A stretch of DNA of 64,000 nt from Octopus sinensis (lineage: Eukaryota). The position numbers and the translations under genes were made by a program. Within the stretch, counting starts at the first letter, position 1; every line of letters begins with the position of its first letter. A model generated the notes under the pieces. It searched no databases, was not told where the DNA came from, and saw only the letters and a list, made by a program, of their open reading frames with translations. Positions 1,936 to 31,365 of this stretch are shown one piece after another. Location: the NCBI RefSeq assembly GCF_006345805.1, contig NW_021836166.1:1-64000 (forward strand), written 5' to 3'.

Positions 1936-2475
1936 TTAAAGGAAATTAAACATTTCCAAAGTTTTTATAACTACTCTGAGCCATCCAAGACTCTCGTCCA
2001 CTCCAATGAGGATGACGTCGAAGGATGGAAGCATCCCGTGAGTCACGTCGTGTCTGATTTGGACGACCCAATCGGGAATGTGCAGTTTTCTACAGCGTTC
2101 CACGAGTGACGAGCTGAGTTTTCCTTTGAGTCGTTCACTCATTAAATTGACGAATCGGACTATGGCCGTTCCGTAGGCGAGTTGGTGCATTAGGTTTGCT
2201 TGCTGTGGACGATTTTGCACGACGGTGAGGAGATTTATTGTCGAGTCGATGGCTACGGGCAGTTTGTCGTTCATTCTGCATTTTATGAAGTTGCGAACCT
2301 TGTTTTCCACACAAGCAGTCGATCCAGGCCATGTTTCACGAGTTGTGCATCTTTAGACCAGAGCTCGTTGGAAATATTGACGAATTCTGATCTTAAAACT
2401 CACAGTTAATGCAAACTCGTCAATCCACGCCACGTTGTTTTTATTTAAGCCAAACAAAATCACCGTCTTAACCAT
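1936..2475 (-). CDS. LAS1L: Las1-like ribosome biogenesis nuclease, N-terminal part (3'-truncated)
   Basis: Removing introns 2392-2416 (25 nt) and 2276-2298 (23 nt) gives VAWIDESEF...VWKTRMNDKLPVAIDST...AIVRFVN...IPDWVVQIRHDVTHGMLPS, the Las1 HEPN motif RHxxTH. Confidence 0.88.
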
Positions 2476-2507
2476 TAACTAACACGTTCAGGTGATTCCG
2501 ACACTTC

Positions 2508-3440
2508 TCAACAGTCGAGCCATCTTTTCACGATGTTCCGACCGTGACCCCACACACTTTCTGTATGTACGGTGAATGGTTTGTGGTCCATTTCCACGAT
2601 CCCCCCATTTGCCTCTACGAGAGACTCCAGTGTTCTATGGACAATTTTCCTATCGGTATGGTCCTTCAGTAGGTTGATAGATCTTTCTTGAATTTTTTCG
2701 ATTTTTAGCCGGTTCGTTGCCGCCAGGTTACAGCCCCAATCAGCACATGCATAGCCTATTGTTGGCTCGATATACTGCTTGTAAAGGGTCTCTACCCCTG
2801 GCGGATAAGTTCTCCCACAGTTCCAAAGGAAGGCTTTTACAAAATTGATCTTCTTTATACAGGTTGATACGATCGATCCTACGTGAGGTGAAAAACAGAG
2901 GAAAGTATCAAACGTTACTCCCAATATCTTCTGTGTTTTCTTTTGTGGTATTGGAATTCCGTTCAACGTGACATCAATAGTTTTCGTCCCCATCTTCCTA
3001 TTTTTCGTGAATAGAGTGACTGCTGACTTTTCGGAACATGCATGTAGTCTGTTTTCATATAGCCATCCATATAAGTCGTCCAGTATTCTTTGTAGTCTTT
3101 CCTTCGCGTATTCGACATTTACATCCCTAGATGCGACAACTATGTCATCGGCATAAGAGAGTAGTATGTCATTATTATCCATAGGAACCGAAAGATAATT
3201 CAGAAACAAGTTGAAGAGGGTCGGGGATAAAGGAGAACCCTGGGGTACACCATTGGGCAATAAGCGTGATCTTGAACTCTCGTTCCCGACGCACACTTTC
3301 CCACGACGTCCGCTCAAAAAATTTGCTATCCATAGCTTCATAGGTGTAGAAATTTTTTTACTAAATATCTTTTGAATTAGGATCTTCCTTGGGACGGAGT
3401 CAAACGCTTTTTCAATGTCGATAGTGCATACAATCGATTT
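2508..3440 (-). mobile_element. Non-LTR retrotransposon RT, 3' part (Jockey/I-like)
   Basis: 277-aa ORF with GVPQGSPLSPTLFN, SYADD and KILGVTFD; DIEKAFDSV just upstream. Confidence 0.92.
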
Positions 3441-4419
3441 CTACTTTCATTTACTAAACAATCATTATTTATCAACAAAATTACTTAATTTAAAATATTT
3501 AGGGAAATGAATCCTGCCTTGGAGTAAGCCACTGCGTGTGTTCAGTCTTACTTTGAGACATTCAATTCTACTGACGGGATGGATCCTAAGTGATTTCCCG
3601 TATTTGAACCCTATTGGAGTGGGAAGTCATCGCATAGACTCCAAGAATGTCCTCTAACTAGGGAAAATTGCTGAATGTGTCGGAGACAAGGTCAACTGCT
3701 ATTGTCAGCTGTTCTATTACGTTGGAGTTTGAAGTATTTGTGTGTTGATATTGTAGATATTTTCTATTCTTACATCATTTGAGCACGTCGACGATCAGTT
3801 AGTTAAATTTAGAATTGTGTAAAATATTCATCGGGGACCAACTTATTATTCAACCATTACGGCGGACCGATTGTCGACCTGGCCATTTTCAGAATGATTG
3901 TTATCAATGGCAGTTTTATGAATGATTCATTTTTCTACCACGCATTTTCTCGATTTCTACACACACCTTCTTCCTTTCTTCATTCTCTTCTTTAAACCTC
4001 CGAGAAAATGCCTCTCGCTGTTTGAATGTCCAAATTCTAAAATAAATTAGTATCATATTTGGTTGATTCGATACTACGACATTTTCCGACTTTTGCCATT
4101 TCTACTTATAAACAAGTTAAGAATAAACTCCACGTATGAGACTAATAAGAGAATGTCAAACAGAAAGGTATGATTAAAACCAGGTCTGTAAGTCCACAAA
4201 TTGGAATAAACCAAGAATGCCTGGAATGTAACACACCTTCATTAATAGCTCGATTCGTGAAAATATAATTTGGAGATTTAATTGCAATAAAACGTCAGGT
4301 GGTGTTGTGGGACACGAATGGCCAGTAGCAAGGACGTGATTTGCCTATACGCGTTCATTCCCATTAAATTCTCTATCTAAACAAATTCATTTCTCAAAGT
4401 AGTATTCCAATAAGTAAAC

Positions 4420-4930: not shown

Positions 4931-5889
4931 GGTGGGGGACACCCCCGTCCTGGTGTCCTTCCAACACGAGGAGGAGTATTCCACGATGCTGGCTATCGCG
5001 ACTGAAATGTGTAGCCGTCTGCTCAGTCTGTAGATTGTCTGATTCCACCCAGTTAGTAAAACTACACAAACTCACCTCGGAGTTGCAGAGACTGGTGTGT
5101 CTCCCTAAGTCGAGTCGAGTGAATTCGCGGAGGGGGAGTCTGTTTGGTGCCATTCTGTCCAATGTGGTGGCCGCGAAGTCTGGAATTGACAGTTTGTGAA
5201 TTTGGTTTTGTTTTAATTGTTATTTTATAGCACCAGTAAGTAGAAGACATTCTCATAACAAGACAAAAGCTCGATTTTGTTACCACCCGACATAACCAGT
5301 CGTGTCTAATATGTAATTTCGCAGAGGAAATGGATTTCGACGAAATAAAGGTTTCTTATCTATATTCCCCGTTTGTGACAGCGTGCCTTCTATAACGATT
5401 TTAATTCATTTAATTAACGCCATTTTTTCTTCGGTCCCGAAAATGGCGAGCACCAGAGGTTTTACTGTATGTAACAAAAATTATTTGTGTTTTTATTGTT
5501 TAGTTAAGTTAAATTTTCAAGTTAATTTTTTTAGTTTGTAGGTTAATAAAGTTATTTTTTGGTTAAATTTTTTATTTTTAGCTTAAATAATTGATTTGAT
5601 GTTTGAAAAATGAACTTCCATGCAAATTGAATTTTTTGGTGTTAAAAAAAGAGGCGTTTCCTTTTTATGCCCCATGCAACCACTGAGGGTTGCATTTACT
5701 AATCCCCCTTATTTGTTTCATTACCTGACTTTCTTAGCCTGTAGCATTTTACAGTAGAATGAAAGCAGGTTTTATAAATTCCTATCCATATGGCCATATG
5801 GCCACAGGTAATTTACTTTAAATTATATGTAAACAAGCTAATCAATGACAGTTTTGTCTGCTCCAATATTTTAATACAGTTTTGTCTGC

Positions 5890-6860
5890 CTTGGCTTGAG
5901 ATCCTATTCCGATCTTGCCCTCCCGGCATTCCTATCCGCTCATGACGCTTCTCGTACTCTCTCAGACATCGTTCTTAGAAACCTCCCCGAACGGAAATTG
6001 TCTGAAGTTTACTCTGCAGCCCGTGGTCGGTGGGAGGCTCGGTTTGGTTCGAAGCTGCCCAACTCTCAATCTGTACAGCGTCAATGGGACGAAATCTTTT
6101 GTCAGGCAATCTTCGAAGGCCTGCTTCCTGTCTCCAATCAACACCGTGTCGCTTTCCTCCGTGCAGGTCGCTGTGAAGGCAGCGGTGTCTGGTTAAAGGC
6201 TCTCCCTCTCCCTCCATCGGGAACCTGTTGGATAAGGAATGCCTAAGAATTGCAATCTCCCTCCGTGTCGGGCTGAAAATCTGCCAGACGCACAAATGCC
6301 GTTGTGGGGGAACTGTTGACGAGTACGGTTTGCATCCCCTCGCTTGCCGGCGGAGTGCCGGTCGTGCCCCCCGTCACAGTGAACTCAACTCAGTCATACA
6401 GAGAGCCCTCGCTTCAGCAGGCATCCCGTCAATCCTTGAACCTGTTGGTTTGGATAGAGGGGATGGCAAACGCCCTGACGGCATGTCCACCTTCCCCTAC
6501 GATCAGGGGAAATCCCTTATTTGGGATTCTACCTGCTCGGACACGTTCTCGCTGGGAAATCTCGCTCTGTCCGCCGCCAATCCTGGGCACGCTTCCAGGC
6601 AGGCCGAGGAGCGAAAGATTCTCAAGTACGGCCACCTCTCCAACTCGCTGTTCTTTACTCCAATTGCCGTGGAGTCCTCCGGGATCTTCGGTCCCAAGAC
6701 ACTCCGCTTCCTTCGCTCGCTCGGTCGACGGATTTCAAGGACTAGTCACAATCCAAGAGAGTTTTCTTGGCTCCTGGAACGTCTGTCGATTGCTGTGATC
6801 CGAGGGAACGGCTTCGCCATTCGCGAGGCTGGTCGGGTGTCTCGTGAGGCCTTTAATTAA
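5890..6860 (+). mobile_element. CRE-like non-LTR retrotransposon 3' part (CCHC + restriction-like endonuclease)
   Basis: CRCG...HPLAC, RHSELN, DGKRPDG, WDSTC and PIAVESSG motifs; A-rich tail at about 6888. Confidence 0.9.
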
Positions 6861-7274
6861 CATAGCTATCTTTAATTTCTTTCTTGCAAAAAAAAAAGTA
6901 ATTACAAGTACAGGTCAAAAAAAAAAAATTTTAATTAATTCGTCAATTATTAGTCAATTCTACCTAATTCTCTTAAAATTTTCCCCATCCTCAGTGACGT
7001 TTAATTCTGCTCAGATATTAGAATTAAGGTTTCTTATCTATATTTCCTGTTTGTGACTGCGTGCCTTCTATACTAAGTCCTTTGATATCGTTTAAAAACA
7101 GTACATTAATGGAATTCTGGTGCGAAATAAGAATTGTATATCCATTACTCAGTTAATTCCATTTCACATAACATATCTGTGAAACGGCAATGTCACATCG
7201 TGTATATTTAAAGTCAAAGTATTGAAATCGTCTTAAAGTAGAAGATGATAAAGCCGAACATTGATACTTTAAAC

Positions 7275-9347
7275 CAGTGATTCTCAAGTGCGGCCCCTGG
7301 GGCCGCATGCGGCCCCTAGGATTTAATTTGCGGCCCCTAGGTTTTATAAATGTTTTATTTTTTAATTTAATATTTTTAAATTTTATGAATAAAAAAATGT
7401 CACGTTTTTATTTGTTGTTGTGATGTCTGATTCTAAACGTTGTCGAAAACTTTCCGAGGAAAATAGGATTTTTCAACACATCTGGGAAGAAAAATATTTC
7501 ATTATTGAGATCAATGGAAAGGCTCTTTGCCTAATATGCCATTCTATTATTGCAACTCTAAAAACGTATACAATCGAACGGCACTACCGTTTCCACTCTA
7601 TTCTTTATGACAAATTCACTGGTGTTTCTCGGACGAAAAAACTAAAACAAATGAAAGAAGATTATTTAAAACGATCATTTACTTTCAAAAGTGGCACATA
7701 TTCGTCTAATATTAACCTGGCATCATACAAAATTAGTTACCTATTGGCTAAAAATATGAAGCCTTATTCTGATGGCGAATTATATAAAACGGCAATCGAA
7801 ATATTTGCATCGGAATGTTGTTCGCCCGCTGTTTTCGATATTGCACACAAGTTACCTCTAAGTAACGATACTGTTACTAGAAGAGTCAGTGATATATCTG
7901 ATAATCTGATTAACGAACTTTTACAGTATGCAAATTGTTTTGTAATTTTTAGAATTTGTAAAGATTTTCAATATTATTCTTTTGCGCTTGATTGTTCCAA
8001 AGATATTTCAGATATCGAACAATTAGTAGTGTTTATAAGGGGAGTAACATCTGACTTTCGAGTATACGAAGAATTTTTTCATTGAATTCACTTCACGGAG
8101 AAACTAAAGGAACACAGATTTTTTCTCCAATTGTGAAATTAATTGAAGATTATCAACTGGATCCAAAAAAATTAGTTTCAATTTCAACTGATGGAGCCCC
8201 TTATATGATTGGCAGTAAAACTGGTTTTCGTGGACGTATGAATAAATGGAGGTGTGATAATAACTGGACTCCAGTATTATGGCATCATTGCATTATTCAT
8301 CAGGAAAACCTAATTTCCAAAAATATTAAAATGGAAAATGTTTCTGAAGTAGTGATAAAAATTGTCAATTGGATTCGGGCGAACGCCTTGAATCACCGAA
8401 AATTTAAAACATTTTTAACTGAAACCGATTCGGATTATGGCGATGTCCTTCTTTTCTCAGTAGTAAGATGGTTAAGCCGTAGCTCTTGTCTCAAAAGGTT
8501 AATTTCTTTTATATTTAGATTTTATCAACTTCTCCCTGAAATTATTTTATTCACTGAAAATAAAGTGGACAATGCATTATTGAAAGACAATAGATGGGTA
8601 GCAGATTTAGCATTTTATGTGGATCTATCGGTGCATCTGTCTGCCCTAAATGTCGAACTACAAGGGGAAAATAAGCTAAATTATCAAATTTATGGATATA
8701 TAAATGCCTTCGTTAAGAAATTAATTTTATGGAAAGCGCAGATATCAAATAATGATTACACACATTTTCCTTATTTGTCAGAAAATTCCGAAAGTGGCTC
8801 AACTGATAAATATTTAAAAATAATTGAAGATTTAAATTTGCAATTGATGCAAGATTTCAGGTTTTTAGTATTTAATTTAAGCTGACAGAGCTTTAAAGAA
8901 GGTGCAAATTCAATGAGATTATTTGCATCTCCATTAATTATGAAAAGTGAGGAGGTTTCCGGGATTTACCAACTGGAATTGATTGATTTGCAAAATGATG
9001 TTGAACTGAAAAGTTTGTTCAACAACATTTCAATAATTGACTTTTATTCGAGAATTCCAGAGAACCGATTTCCGAATTTAGTCAATAATGCAAAGAAAAA
9101 TTTAGCAATGTTTGGATCAACATATGTCTGCGAATCGACATTTAGTAAACTCGTTCGAATTAAAACAAAGTTTCGCAGCAGATTGACTGATACTCATCTG
9201 AGTGATTTGTTACGTACTTCAACAAGTAGAATTAAACCTAATTTTGATTATTTGGTTAATAAATAATTCTTAAAAATTATTTGCGGCCCCTGTAAATTTT
9301 TTTTTTTTAATTTGCGGCCCCTGAGCAAAAAAGCTTGAGAATCACTG
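7275..9347 (+). mobile_element. Full-length hAT (Buster/SPIN/GTF2IRD2-like) DNA transposon with three micro-introns
   Basis: 14-bp TIR CAGTGATTCTCAAG; perfect 8-bp TSD CTTTAAAC (7267-7274, 9348-9355); transposase motifs STDGAPYM, HCIIHQ, RWLSR, FGSTYVCESTFS; introns 7926-7952, 8498-8518, 8861-8888. Confidence 0.97.
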
Positions 9348-9494
9348 CTTTAAACTCTAAATGCAAGTACAATTAGGCAGTTTAATTACATTATAAATTT
9401 TTATTAATAAGATTTGATTTGCCACCCGCACTAAGAAAACTTTCAAGAATTATTTTAATTAATCCCTAATTATTAAGTCCTTGTTTTTTTAAGT

Positions 9495-9712
9495 TTTCTT
9501 TTTAGTTGTTTTGCGGCGGTAACAACGGTAGGACGCACGTGACATCCCATCCAAAAGTTCATTCATGTTTGGAATCCGTATGTGGTGAGATGTCATGACG
9601 GCGTCACTTGTCATAAAATTCACTCAGACCCAATCGGAGCTTCCTGCACAGGCAGCCGCTGGGAATCGAACCCTTGACCAAGGAGATTACTAGCAAATTC
9701 TAGACCACTTGT
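9495..9712 (-). mobile_element. tRNA-derived SINE-like element
   Basis: Minus strand has A-box-like AGTGGTCTAG and B-box GGTTCGATTCC, then a non-tRNA body and an A-rich end. Confidence 0.55.
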
Positions 9713-10019
9713 ACTTATTAAGAACAAGAAAGTTTTTTTAATTTTTAAAAAGTCCAAAATAAATCTCTGACAGCAATAAACTTGATGACGTCCTCAATGT
9801 CCATGCTTCTCCAGATATGCTTGGGCAGTCTCTTGTTATGTCCAGAACTGAAAAACGACCGACAAGACATGACATGGCTGGCAACAATAATTAAGACACT
9901 CAATAGGGGAGCCCTCAGGTTTTCTTCTTTTAGACATTCAGATGAGTAAAGAGGTTGCCTATTTATGTGTTGTTGTGTGTACATGTCGTACATATTACCC
10001 TGGCTGGTGAATAGCTATT

Positions 10020-26864: not shown

Positions 26865-27300
26865 AAAGCCTTCTCGCCTTCTCGGCAACTGAGGCAAGTT
26901 TATGGCCGCCTTCGCCAAACATATTTGATTGAGACAACTCTGCTTTGAAAGCAGCAGCATCTTCGGGCGATCTGAATTTTAGAATGAAGGTGCCGGACTT
27001 CTGTAAAGTTATCCGAGCTTTGGAGGCAGTTGGCGACTTGGATAGGAGGTTAAACCTCTTGATCTTTCCAAGTGTCGGGTTTTCGATACTCAGGGAATAT
27101 GTGAGGGTCTGATGGGATTGGGTCTCACTCTGTTTTTGAGGCCCAGTAGACTTCGGCAGTTCTGTGGGATCTTCAGCTTTGATTGGTTCGCAAAAGGGCT
27201 GTGGCTTTGCCGCTGTTCGTCTTTGAGCTTTGGAGCAAGCTTTGATTGATGAGAGATTTTGATTATTCTTGACCATTTTTTCTTTCTTTTCCTTGACCAT
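26865..27300 (-). mobile_element. Probable non-LTR ORF1 (gag-like) fragment
   Basis: Intronless, basic low-complexity N-terminus followed by RRM-like GTFILKFRSPEDAAAFKAEL; runs out into AT-rich DNA. Confidence 0.4.
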
Positions 27301-27320
27301 GATATTCAATCCGATATTCA

Positions 27321-28778
27321 ATGAATTGTCACAACAAAGGTTGTCTTTTTATGAACGAAGCTCTCGGTAAGGTAGTGGGCTTGGAAACGTCACCTCCTGA
27401 AAGCTTACCCTTTCTTGGAAGGTACTTCTTCTTGGACAAGGTCCCTTTTGAAGTCAATTCGTTCCAAAACCCACTTAGAACCTTACCTAAACTTTGTTTG
27501 GGTCTATCTCATGCTCAATGGCAGCAACGCTTAGCCGGCTATTCCATTACAGATTCCTCCACTCCAATTATAGGGGATTACATAAAGGCTAACTATGACG
27601 GCAAAACTAAGGCTTCCCTTGACACCATGGGGTATATTCTTGTAGGGAAATACGGAGAACTTTTCAGCAATTACAACACTGAAAGATCCGTAGAGGTGAT
27701 GTGCGATGCGCTCAACATTTCCAAGGGTGCTTTGATTATAGCACAGGAAAAGATTTTGCGCAGAAGTCCCGTCAACCTCATTCCTAATGACTTGTCCCCA
27801 AAGTCATTGGAGCCTTGTAAACAGCCTGATACTTTAGACTTTACTGTTGCCGTCCCCTCGTGTTGGTACAATCCACCTGTAGATGATCTCTGTCTTCTTA
27901 AGTGCCTCGAGTATGCTTACGCAATTAATGGTTATGAAAACGTTTCCTTAGGATCCTTTGTCCCTGAGTTAAGTCGGTACTCTTTCCAGACTGTTGATGG
28001 TAATACGTTTAAAGATTTCTTGGATTCAATTTCTAGAATTCTGCGTGTTAACATTAGGGTTATAGTTGAGTCCTTCGACGCTTGTTCCCCTTTTCGTTAT
28101 GATTCTTCGCGTATTAATGGTACCTTTGGAGACACCAACATTTTGTTGTCCTGCTCCAGATGCCATTATTTTTTACACATTCCATCTGTGTCTATTCCTA
28201 AAATAAGTCTTTCTATTCTTCAAAAGAAACCCTCAATTATTGAAAGAATTCTTTTTGAACATTCACTGATTTTCAAACGTCTATGCGTGTTTGACTTTAT
28301 CTTCTATGTTGACATCAAAGATGTCTCATTGATCACTAAGTTAGACAGTGTAAACGTGTTGTATTCCCCTGCTGTTCCGAGATTTAGAGTCCTTTATCCG
28401 AACATCATGTCTTTTGTTGAGATTAGCGATTCTGTGCAACCATCGCTCAGTTCCTTGAGCGAGGAGGCACTTGATGTGAGTCTCTTCATTTTTAAAACAA
28501 ATAACTACTCATTCTTTGAGCAGTTAAAGAACATCTTTCCGAATTTGATTGTATTAAGCGATAACAAACTTATCGTCAGCCGGGGTATTGGCGAGATTGG
28601 CTTCTTCGCTAAATTTAAGAAGTTGCCTCTTTCTCCGCATCAGGCTGACTTGGATAAGCCTTGCAACGTGTCTTTTGATTCTATGAAGGGTCCAATTCGC
28701 CAACATTACTTAACTGTTGTTAAGCAGGCGTTGGATACCTTTTTACGAACGAACAACGAACAGATTTTATTGACTTAG
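27321..28778 (+). CDS. Intronless 485-aa ORF; putative RNA-virus polyprotein fragment with OTU/papain-like protease motif
   Basis: DDLCLLKCLEYA and ILLSCSRCHYF suggest a Cys/His dyad; T-rich and intron-free, unlike the host genes here. Confidence 0.45.
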   Translation: MNCHNKGCLFMNEALGKVVGLETSPPESLPFLGRYFFLDKVPFEVNSFQNPLRTLPKLCLGLSHAQWQQRLAGYSITDSSTPIIGDYIKANYDGKTKASLDTMGYILVGKYGELFSNYNTERSVEVMCDALNISKGALIIAQEKILRRSPVNLIPNDLSPKSLEPCKQPDTLDFTVAVPSCWYNPPVDDLCLLKCLEYAYAINGYENVSLGSFVPELSRYSFQTVDGNTFKDFLDSISRILRVNIRVIVESFDACSPFRYDSSRINGTFGDTNILLSCSRCHYFLHIPSVSIPKISLSILQKKPSIIERILFEHSLIFKRLCVFDFIFYVDIKDVSLITKLDSVNVLYSPAVPRFRVLYPNIMSFVEISDSVQPSLSSLSEEALDVSLFIFKTNNYSFFEQLKNIFPNLIVLSDNKLIVSRGIGEIGFFAKFKKLPLSPHQADLDKPCNVSFDSMKGPIRQHYLTVVKQALDTFLRTNNEQILLT

Positions 28779-28861
28779 CAACCGAAAAAGAAGAGTTATA
28801 TGAAAAGGTTTTATTAAAATCGAGACACCGAAAGCCTCCTCCTTGCTTTCCTTTTGGAGAT

Positions 28862-29610
28862 GTGGAAATAACCTCCTCCGACCCAAGCACAAAGATGTTT
28901 AGACTAGGATCCAAGGCGTTCAAGACCCTTCAACCAAAGGAGCCTATTTCGATAGGTGAACCAAGATCCAGGGACTTGCTCGTTACGCCGACTACTGCGG
29001 AATGGACACAGGCATTTATGAGGGCGCTGTTTCCAATAAGGTACAGCCAAGCGAAGTCCCGTAATCCAGAAGCAGTAACGGCGCTCATGGAACGTTACAA
29101 CGCTGCTATGGCAAGGTTGTCACCCTTATTCAGCCCGGACCAGAACCTGGTGGCAAAATTCTCTATAAAATATGCAGAAGAACAAGGACTGGACAAGCTA
29201 TGCTGTTTATTAGATAAAATGTTAGGTCTAAATCCAGCAGACCCTATAGCAATACTAAGATTCTGCACAGTGGGGTTTTATAACGGCGGGAACGCTGTGC
29301 TGTCGAGGATTATAACCTTAGGAACTGTCTTGAAAACCTCAGAGGAACGGTCTCTCTTGATACAAGGGTTGTTTGTCCCGACTTTCAGGGACGAGGTCAG
29401 AAAGGCACTAGGGCACTTCTGTGAAGTAACCTCTAGTGACCACCTTTGCGTCTACCAGAAAGGTCTTGGACTAGTGAGAGCCTCGGCCTTTAGTTCCACC
29501 TCTCTGCCAGGCCTGTATTTATTCATGAGTACGATTGGCGGCATGTTGACCGTGACCAAATTGTTTTATTCCAGGAGTGTTCTGGAGACCGAAGGACCTA
29601 CGTACCAAAA
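28862..29610 (+). other. Endogenous viral element: Mononegavirales (rhabdovirus-like) nucleoprotein fragment
   Basis: YQKGLGLVRASAFSSTSLPGLYLFMSTIGGML parallels the rhabdovirus N RNA-binding motif (FGLSSKSPYSSVKNPAFHFWGQLTALLL in VSV); intronless; the ORF runs on into AT-rich DNA to 29725. Confidence 0.65.
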
Positions 29611-29789
29611 AAACATTTATATAATAAAAAAGTATCATTCCGAAATTTTGTTGATAATTTATAAAAATAATATAACAATAATTAAATTCGTGTTCAGTTT
29701 AAAAAAGTCTAGAAAAAAAATATAACAATAATGATTAAAATTTGGTAGAAATTGATCATTTTAGATTAGAAACTGACAGGATTGAAAGA

Positions 29790-30110
29790 ATATATAGAAA
29801 TTAAGTTAATTCAAAAAAACACTATTAATGAAGATTAATTAATTGATAAAATGAAAAAAATTCGCTTGCAAAATAAACTTTATCCAAGATATTTTACCAG
29901 TAGTCAATTTAATTAATCTTCACAAAAATAGAAAAGCAAAAATATTATAAAAATAAAACATTGATTTCAATAAATAATCAAATAAGAATTAAAAACAAAA
30001 ATGCACAACAAAACAACAGAATATGACGTAAACACGTGAAAAATTTATCGTAATTAATTCAATAAGTTAAAAACATTTAGAAAATAAAATAAATAAAATT
30101 TAATATCATC
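29790..30110 (+). repeat. Merlin 3' subterminal region copy
   Basis: ATGAAGATTAATTAATTGATAAAAT...GCAAAATAAACTTTAT...TTTTACCAGTAG shared with 50100-50415 and, inverted, with 15806-16125. Confidence 0.8.
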
Positions 30111-30211: not shown

Positions 30212-31162
30212 CTAATCCGACGACCCGTCCGCATCCGAAGTCTGGAGGCCAGCCTCTTCTGCTTCTGGTCGAAGGAATAGCTCTGTGAGAGCATTTTCCA
30301 GCAGGTCCTTCTGCCCATGTGGCATTAGGGGGCTGGATCTGCGCGCATCAACAGATGCACTCTCTAGAGTTCTCTTCAGGACAGTGGACTGCATATAGGC
30401 CTTAATGTACCTATCGACTCCCAACTGGCTGAGATAACCCTTGTGGTACTTAGATACGATTCCTTCCCATGTCATCACGCAAGGAATGACAAGGACCTTG
30501 CATCTGTGCATCAACCCAAGCTCGTTTGCAAGAAGGTCGTACTTACGCTTCTTTTCCACTTCCACCGTGGTCAAACGATCTAGACATGTGATGCCAACTT
30601 CTATGATAAGTATCTCGCCAGAGACCTTATCTTGTACCACAATGTCCGGCTTATTGTGCTGGACAAGTATCGAGGTGGACAAGTATCGAGGACAAGTATC
30701 GAGGACAAGTATAGCTTGTGCCTTTTCCGTTTGCAAGATTGCGTACATCCTATCTGATACACTAGCACCAGACACCAGGTGGTCATGCATCTTCAGGAGA
30801 ATACGCTCACTTAAATGGGCCACTCCACAAAGCCCCCTTCCGAATTGAGCACGTGGTAGATATAGCCTCTCCTTGTTGGCTGCCAGCACATGGACATGGT
30901 TTTCCCTCAGTACTCTACGGATCATACAATCCATATCATCGTACTCCTGTGGCTCAAACTCCACAATACCTACATAATAGTTAAGCAATGATATTGCATA
31001 TTCATTCAACGCATGGAATAAATTCCTTGCATTTAAATGAGTTTTGCATAACATTGCTGCCCGCTTCCGAACTCCCTCTATTATTTGGATCATGACAAGG
31101 GAATGGGCCACCATCTGGTCGTCCATTGCAGAGATATAGCCATGTGGCAAACTATAAGTCAA
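30212..31162 (-). mobile_element. R4/Dong-like non-LTR retrotransposon 3' part (RLE), internally deleted
   Basis: ERLYLPR..GRGL, HNKPDIVV, EVGIT, EKKRKYDLLANEL. Confidence 0.9.
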
Positions 31163-31365
31163 TGACTACTCCTCACGTCGTTTCTGTTGGTATTGAAGCG
31201 GGTGGTAATGCTGGCCAGATCACAGTCAATGGAGGAACAGACCTGCAGAGATTTGTTGATGGCTTCACTCAGGTGTTGGGGGAATTCAATGTCAGAATTA
31301 TTGTATTCATCCATCACTAAACTAATATTTAAATAATATTTATTAAATAAATAAACAATCTTATA

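Follow-up and report, generated by a model that had tools for sequence, protein, structure and literature searches.

A rhabdovirus nucleoprotein-like fragment between retrotransposon pieces in the genome of Octopus sinensis

Features of the locus

The stretch of DNA analyzed here (hereafter the window) comprises the 64,000 nucleotides of contig C12637:1-64000 from the genome of Octopus sinensis, which is assembled in 13,516 contigs totaling 2.72 Gb. The features discussed below are a nucleoprotein (N)-like fragment, a nodavirus-like replicase fragment directly upstream of it, and the repeats that border both (Table 1).

Table 1. Positions of viral and repeat-derived features in the window.
Feature	Position	Strand	Basis or remark
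Retrotransposon gag-like repeat, left border of the nodavirus-like fragment	26876..27301	-	blastn
Fragment of a nodavirus-like replicase (protein A), spanning motif E (FLGRYF) to almost the C-terminus	27322..28726	+	inside ORF 27303-28778
Stop-to-stop frame enclosing the N-like part	28724..29725	+	333 codons
Non-LTR retrotransposon remnant, heavily 5'-truncated: 3' UTR and (ACGA)n-type tail	28727..28855	-	blastn, k-mer depth
N-like endogenous viral fragment	28853..29600	+	tblastn, profile alignment, hhalign, HMMER, Pfam Rhabdo_ncap below cut-off
Multi-copy repeat in two pieces (29602-29673 and 29654-29767), ending the N-like fragment	29602..29767	.	blastn, k-mer depth
Open frame in repeat-flanked DNA	30212..31165	-	317 codons, no Pfam family

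The N-like fragment spans 249 codons (~750 bases) with zero stops. In blastn comparisons with its paralogs the match sets in at 28853, and with a full-length relative as the tblastn query it covers 28853-29581; the original prediction, which placed the element at 28862-29610, was correct to ~10 bases. The enclosing stop-to-stop frame contains the peptide quoted in that prediction (YQKGLGLVRASAFSSTSLPGLYLFMSTIGGMLTVTKLFYSRS); its initial 43 codons are the tail of a long interspersed element (LINE), its final ~40 are repeat DNA, and its earliest ATG is found at 28895. The reference relative (locus L008, contig C6088) has a 617-codon frame, or 582 aa when counted from the first ATG. By tblastn, the fragment corresponds to approximately residues 134-374 of this 582-aa protein, relative to which ~175 N-terminal and ~190 C-terminal codons are missing. 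Because the alignment is collinear, without an intron-sized gap, and free of stops, the fragment can be described as intronless, as had been proposed.

On the 5' side, positions 28745-28855 match the 3' end common to eight fetched retroelement copies at 98-99% identity. To one another, the eight are likewise 98-99% alike, and the sequence they have in common extends 587-2114 nt from the 3' end. These copies carry a reverse-transcriptase ORF on the opposite strand (RVT_1, E 3.4e-22), and the sense strand of the LINE is therefore the minus strand here, antisense to the N-like fragment. Given the near-identical copies and the RVT_1 ORF on the opposite strand, the 5' neighbor is identified as what is left of a young non-LTR retrotransposon with a truncated 5' end, namely its 3' UTR and tail. 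The k-mer depth over this tail is 2,100-3,600, compared with ~100 in the flanks.

On the 3' side, the k-mer depth is 5,200-9,900 over the repeat (~9,600-9,900 at 29581-29702), as opposed to ~93 over the N part. This repeat is present in roughly 100 copies (59 matches in the genome), and ~350 nt are absent between its two pieces in comparison with the copies at L050, L051, L053, and L054. It is also found in regularly spaced arrays (C12441:5262-27901, C10250:36601-55223, C13428, and C2235), and five copies at a spacing of ~3.6 kb on C12441 suggest that it belongs to a longer unit repeated in tandem. The AT-rich DNA after 29600 was also considered as the native 3' flank of N, as seen after the N frame of L005; this was rejected, since the last ~20 codons in L005 are already repeat, with the join at an interior position of that repeat. 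The element had been described as cut off at its 3' side by AT-rich transposon DNA, and repeat DNA does lie there, but the 5' side is truncated as well, by the 110-nt LINE tail. Farther downstream, the 317-codon open frame is flanked by repeats common to other loci and is probably part of a transposon.

The N part has a k-mer depth of 93 and the neighboring nodavirus-like part one of 109, and an 821-nt unitig covers 28799-29619, thereby crossing the LINE/N junction; the sequencing runs come from one sample, probably the assembled one, and are not independent of the assembly. Depth and the junction-crossing unitig exclude a scaffolding artefact only. In this 64-kb contig, virus-derived DNA is continuous with transposon DNA on both sides at host copy depth.

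The ORF directly upstream (27303-28778, 491 codons, plus strand) is distinct from N. Over residues 16-141 it shares 95% identity with an ORF at L017 that bears the sequences TGSPITTDMNT, CYGDDLL, and FLGRYF; the relative at L056 contributes VKLEPAKPTKSPRQI and YDYSAWDS, and at L058 a hydrophobic N-terminal stretch and a Noda_Vmethyltr domain (63.5 bits, cut-off 30; E 2.4e-17) lie ahead of the same polymerase. Family membership was judged by the pairing of Noda_Vmethyltr with a GDD polymerase, which is found at the L058 locus, the piece in the window comprising motif E onward only; the RdRP_1 match in the family is sub-threshold. On the strength of these motifs, the ORF is a nodavirus-like replicase fragment, ending at ~28726 where the LINE tail starts. 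Its relatives resemble protein A of the Nodaviridae in having Noda_Vmethyltr and motifs F, A, B, C, and E in order, whereas the piece here consists of motif E onward together with ~440 C-terminal residues for which Pfam gives no family match. A search of the ESM Atlas with the 491-codon ORF likewise gave no usable match, and an OTU-like protease motif noticed in it by eye found no support from Pfam or the ESM Atlas. The replicase family (with relatives at L017, L018, L056, and L058) yields 27 rows for the 491-codon ORF and 16 for the polymerase core, and its copies share 95% protein identity but ~81% DNA identity, as in the N family. The gag-like repeat at its left border is 83-92% identical to copies at L002, L044, L046, L066, and L080, and the homologous ORF at L044 has a weak zf-CCHC match.

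Similarity to rhabdovirus nucleoproteins

A Pfam scan of the N-like ORF reported Rhabdo_ncap (PF00945) as the sole family, with residues 212-287 matching positions 237-312 of the 410-position profile (E 0.0033, 16.8 bits). The same family was the only one reported for the relatives L024 (E 7.5e-4, 19.0 bits), L008 (E 0.0064, 15.9 bits), and L011 (E 0.039, 13.3 bits), and thus for 4/4 N-like ORFs tested. A search against this profile had been put forward as a check on the original prediction: no other family was reported, but the scores of all four ORFs (13.3-19.0 bits) miss the gathering cut-off of 26 bits.

An exhaustive HMMER scan of 1,835,955,588 representative proteins returned two collinear matches that pass E<=1e-3 (3.3e-4 and 7.6e-4), the single-sequence E-values for the fragment being only ~1e-4. 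Both matches are genuine rhabdovirus N (Rhabdo_ncap E 1.3e-81 and 6.5e-44), and one is annotated as a sigmavirus nucleoprotein (UniRef100_A0AAU7L0L4). A rhabdovirus N profile was built from seven proteins, namely these two matches and five further rhabdovirus N. Against this HMM (hmmsearch), the N-like fragment scores 54.6 bits, compared with 4.1 bits for the best of 2000 shuffles and -3.8 for the reversed sequence; as 2/7 of the profile members were picked for having matched the fragment, tests with the profile are not fully independent of the HMMER scan. When 17 N-like ORFs of the same genome were aligned as a profile to the seven rhabdovirus N (hhalign), the probability was 98.6% (E 5.2e-16) over 278 columns.

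The stretch S..S.[YF]S...P G is a hallmark of the rhabdovirus N family. The profile alignment sets GLGLVRASAFSSTSLPGLYLF opposite the GlvtkSaySatvnPgifff stretch of rhabdovirus N, and LVRASAFSSTSLPGLYLF aligns to the profile's lvtkSaySatvnPgifff, with the motif at the expected position and its columns conserved across all four N-like lineages described below. The quoted peptide and the motif spacing on which the original prediction was based are hence both present and agree with the profile alignment. Taken together, the sole Pfam family, the two HMMER matches, the profile score, and the hhalign result bear out the rhabdovirus-like identity, and at the level of sequence comparison the homology of the fragment to rhabdovirus N is established.

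The similarity is collinear over ~200-280 core residues, including the S-x-S-a-[FY]-S-x-x-x-x-P-G motif and the helix-rich region before it, whereas the fragment is just 18-24% identical to rhabdovirus N. The full-length N-like relative also differs in length, with 582 aa as opposed to 428-463 aa in five full-length rhabdovirus N (~120 aa longer), and carries an additional, conserved region at its C-terminus.

AlphaFold, applied to the 17-row N-like alignment, gave a low-confidence model (mean pLDDT 37.6, pTM 0.22) in which the secondary structure is mostly helical. Among PDB sequences, an antitoxin at E 0.39, a noise-level score, was the sole match to the single fragment, and a profile of the 17-row alignment had zero matches; the full-length N-like protein found no usable match in the ESM Atlas. 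A word-indexed search with the 617-aa relative found none at E<=0.01 among proteins of 339-1080 aa. Pattern scans of viral contigs (with a single protein and with a 5-row alignment) found no exogenous relative, and a scan of metagenome contigs with the 5-row alignment found no relative, these scans reaching only fairly close ones.

The N-like family and accompanying viral fragments

A search of the genome for related copies gave 72 rows, 41 of which cover the N part (by hand count) at ~35 places and 24-96% identity, while the other 31 match only residues 5-74, the LINE tail. Most N-like copies carry zero to one stops. In a quick IQ-TREE analysis of 20 N-like copies and six rhabdovirus N, the two sets are split with an SH-aLRT value of 100, and the N-like copies form four lineages, with 7 rows of the window type, 9 rows of the L008 type, and two distant pairs (L043/L044 and L045/L046).

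The nearest copy to that in the window is L012 (contig C5454), which is 93% identical to 29309-29839 over 570 columns, including a 39-nt gap; it has the identical 3' junction and retains 13 codons that are deleted from the window fragment. By the Nei-Gojobori method, dN and dS are 0.018 and 0.051 for the window copy versus L012, and 0.014 and 0.053 for L003 versus L004; these two pairs look like duplicates that arose after integration. In all 15 other pairs tested, pS is 0.80-1.0, i.e., saturated. The 14 within-lineage pairs nonetheless have pN of only 0.05-0.18 and 71-94% protein identity, as exemplified by the window copy and L024 (94% identity over 141 codons, pN 0.058, pS 0.87), and in the comparison across lineages of the window copy with L008, pS is 0.87 and pN is 0.37. 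Synonymous sites are saturated between fragments that are mostly unable to encode a working protein, and the simplest reading of these values is therefore that the copies diverged as viruses under strong constraint and were then integrated separately, many times.

Strong constraint could also be explained if a captured N had founded a host gene family that is kept as protein by selection (domesticated, like some bornavirus-like elements), and the long open frames (617 codons in L008, 333 here), the scarcity of stops in most copies, and a pN far under pS between copies are all in keeping with this. We nevertheless regard domestication as improbable. The window copy has neither protein end, beginning in the LINE tail and ending in the repeat, and other copies are cut by repeats at differing points; synonymous saturation between fragments without coding capacity fits divergence before integration. 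The sole pairs that diverged after integration are too similar for a test of selection, with an estimated ~4 synonymous and ~4 non-synonymous changes, and at ~2% divergence from the duplicate L012 a frame that is still open is expected by chance. Furthermore, the only homologues outside this genome in the word-indexed and HMMER protein searches are viral N.

The genome contains 33 Mononeg_RNA_pol matches (best E 1.6e-95), several of them on N-bearing contigs, and a Rhabdo_glycop_FD match (E 3.2e-6, 28.2 bits against a cut-off of 22), which make the mononegavirus source named in the original prediction plausible. Contigs with L-polymerase matches include C10696, C4577, C8318, C8694, and C9340, among others (L068-L073). 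One 455-codon open L fragment (L069, on C4577) shares 47% identity with L proteins from flatworm-associated rhabdoviruses. The viruses with these proteins are classified in Betaplatrhavirus, within the Rhabdoviridae (PMC12451637). The glycoprotein (G)-like fragment (L066:2625-3391 on C12699 and L043:6974-7378 on C12418) is situated downstream of a piece of a second ORF and runs into the same 3' repeat that ends N fragments. We infer from these matches that the source was probably a rhabdo-like mononegavirus, fragments of whose L and G share clusters with the N-like pieces. Against this explanation, L fragments of 47% identity should be accompanied by more canonical N, yet the genome has just one canonical Rhabdo_ncap match (C9:72705869-72706150), and the N-like pieces adjoin nodavirus-like pieces about as often as rhabdo-like ones. 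No contiguous N-P-M-G-L set was found, the L and G fragments sharing a genome and contigs with the N-like pieces, and no common rhabdovirus-type gene-end signal was seen after N in L005, L008, L011, L042, and L053.

The second ORF (L008:2956-3729 and L014:1107-1931, both on C6088, and L062:1372-2121 on C10696) is at least 274-290 codons long, hits no Pfam family, and is matched 18 times in the genome. From its position, our guess is that it may be the phosphoprotein gene of the source virus.

The order of the fragments varies from place to place. In the window, the replicase is followed by the LINE tail and then by N; at L024, the replicase tail is followed by a piece of a third N lineage and then by window-type N; and at L020, the N-terminus of N is followed by replicase residues 125-224. 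At L008, N is followed after 127 nt by the second ORF of unknown family, while at L062 the second ORF precedes N, and at L023 it continues in frame into the polymerase. At its start, the 3' repeat abuts N fragments at differing N positions (L050, L051/L054, L053, and window/L012), and it also abuts a nodavirus-like fragment (L023) and the ORFs beside the G-like fragment (L043 and L066).

These joins bear on a further alternative, in which both the N-like gene and its nodavirus-like neighbor derive from one unknown virus with a capping replicase and a helical nucleoprotein, so that their adjacency reflects viral genome order. Direct or near-direct joins of N and replicase do occur at several diverged places (the window, L005/L024 with the replicase tail ahead of N, and L020), and at L049 the two are adjacent on opposite strands. 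In the window, however, the 3' tail of a LINE separates the replicase from N, so this join is not native; the break points between N and replicase differ at every place, and at L024 a piece of N from a third lineage lies between them. In addition, since the replicase has an N-terminus of its own (a transmembrane stretch and Noda_Vmethyltr), the in-frame join at L023 is non-native, which shows that heterologous splicing is common, and the clusters with N also contain rhabdovirus-type G and L fragments. A single virus of this kind is accordingly held to be very improbable.

Fragments of N-like, nodavirus-like, L-like, and second-ORF type are found within a few kb of each other on C8311, C10696, C12598, C12418, C12699, C7755, C7758, C12597, C12603, C8999, C10781, and C11370. 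These recurring contigs look like virus-fragment clusters, some blocks of which are duplicated (C8999 and two places on C12603).

Origin and comparison with known integrations

We consider it highly probable that the element is a piece of DNA homologous to rhabdovirus N that has lost both ends and lies between retrotransposon pieces, that likely arose when a retrotransposon's reverse transcriptase copied viral RNA into germline DNA, and that is predicted to encode no working nucleoprotein. That the similarity to N is spurious, or that the locus is an assembly artefact or contamination by an exogenous virus, has next to no probability: the Pfam scores are sub-threshold and the AlphaFold prediction failed, but the profile score of 54.6 bits compares with <=4.1 in 2000 shuffles, the hhalign probability against rhabdovirus N is 98.6%, the k-mer depth is single-copy and the same as in the unique flanks, the 5' junction is spanned by a unitig, and dozens of diverged N-like copies are embedded in repeats.

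For the germline copy of a viral N, the mechanism we propose, read from the junctions only, is that abundant viral RNA would have been copied into the germline by the reverse transcriptase of a non-LTR retrotransposon, and that template switching or insertion by the same type of enzyme would have produced the mosaic joins, with later insertions and duplications following capture and splicing. In mammals, bornavirus-like N elements are RNA-virus N sequences that were reverse-transcribed by a LINE enzyme, and in LINE-made chimeric retrocopies the enzyme switches templates. Unlike such chimeras, the N locus in the window has neither a target-site duplication nor a poly(A) tail that could be seen, and its LINE piece is antisense; given this orientation, the LINE tail is equally well explained by a later insertion in truncated form.

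The category itself is not new, N genes that negative-strand RNA viruses left in host genomes being a familiar type of genomic fossil. Rhabdovirus-derived N integrations are among the endogenous viral elements of non-retroviral origin (nrEVEs) of mosquitoes, sandflies, and ticks (PMC5497376, PMC10974309, PMC10675110), where, in the passages cited, they are intronless fragments of negative-strand N, many per genome, lying among retrotransposon fragments and concentrated in certain regions, as in the octopus. Those arthropod integrations are, in the same passages, generally clear matches to known rhabdovirus N, whereas the source lineage here is far from every N in the databases, with two weak matches in 1.84 billion proteins. 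The passages cited from two of these reports also document an association of the arthropod integrations with piRNAs or small RNAs (PMC5497376, PMC10675110), and by analogy any present role of the octopus fragment would more plausibly be that of a small-RNA template than of a protein.

The original prediction saw in the element the record of a divergent mononegavirus that had infected this host lineage. As an N fossil it can stand, but it is one of ~35 places rather than a solitary record, and it lies directly beside a nodavirus-like replicase fragment. The four deep lineages and their saturated synonymous sites point to a long-lasting, diversified group of viruses that would have infected this host lineage and entered its germline repeatedly. 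The chances are about even that a deep rhabdo-like clade, so far undescribed and with an N of unusual length, is recorded solely by the ~35 N-like places, the second ORF, and part of the L and G fragments, a reading that we rank as much more likely than a single virus combining N with a nodavirus-type replicase. A profile of the N-like family could be used to seek the living virus in transcriptomes, and the joins to nodavirus-like, L-like, and G-like fragments, together with the exact retrotransposon ends, provide a set of junctions in which the capture of viral RNA may be studied.
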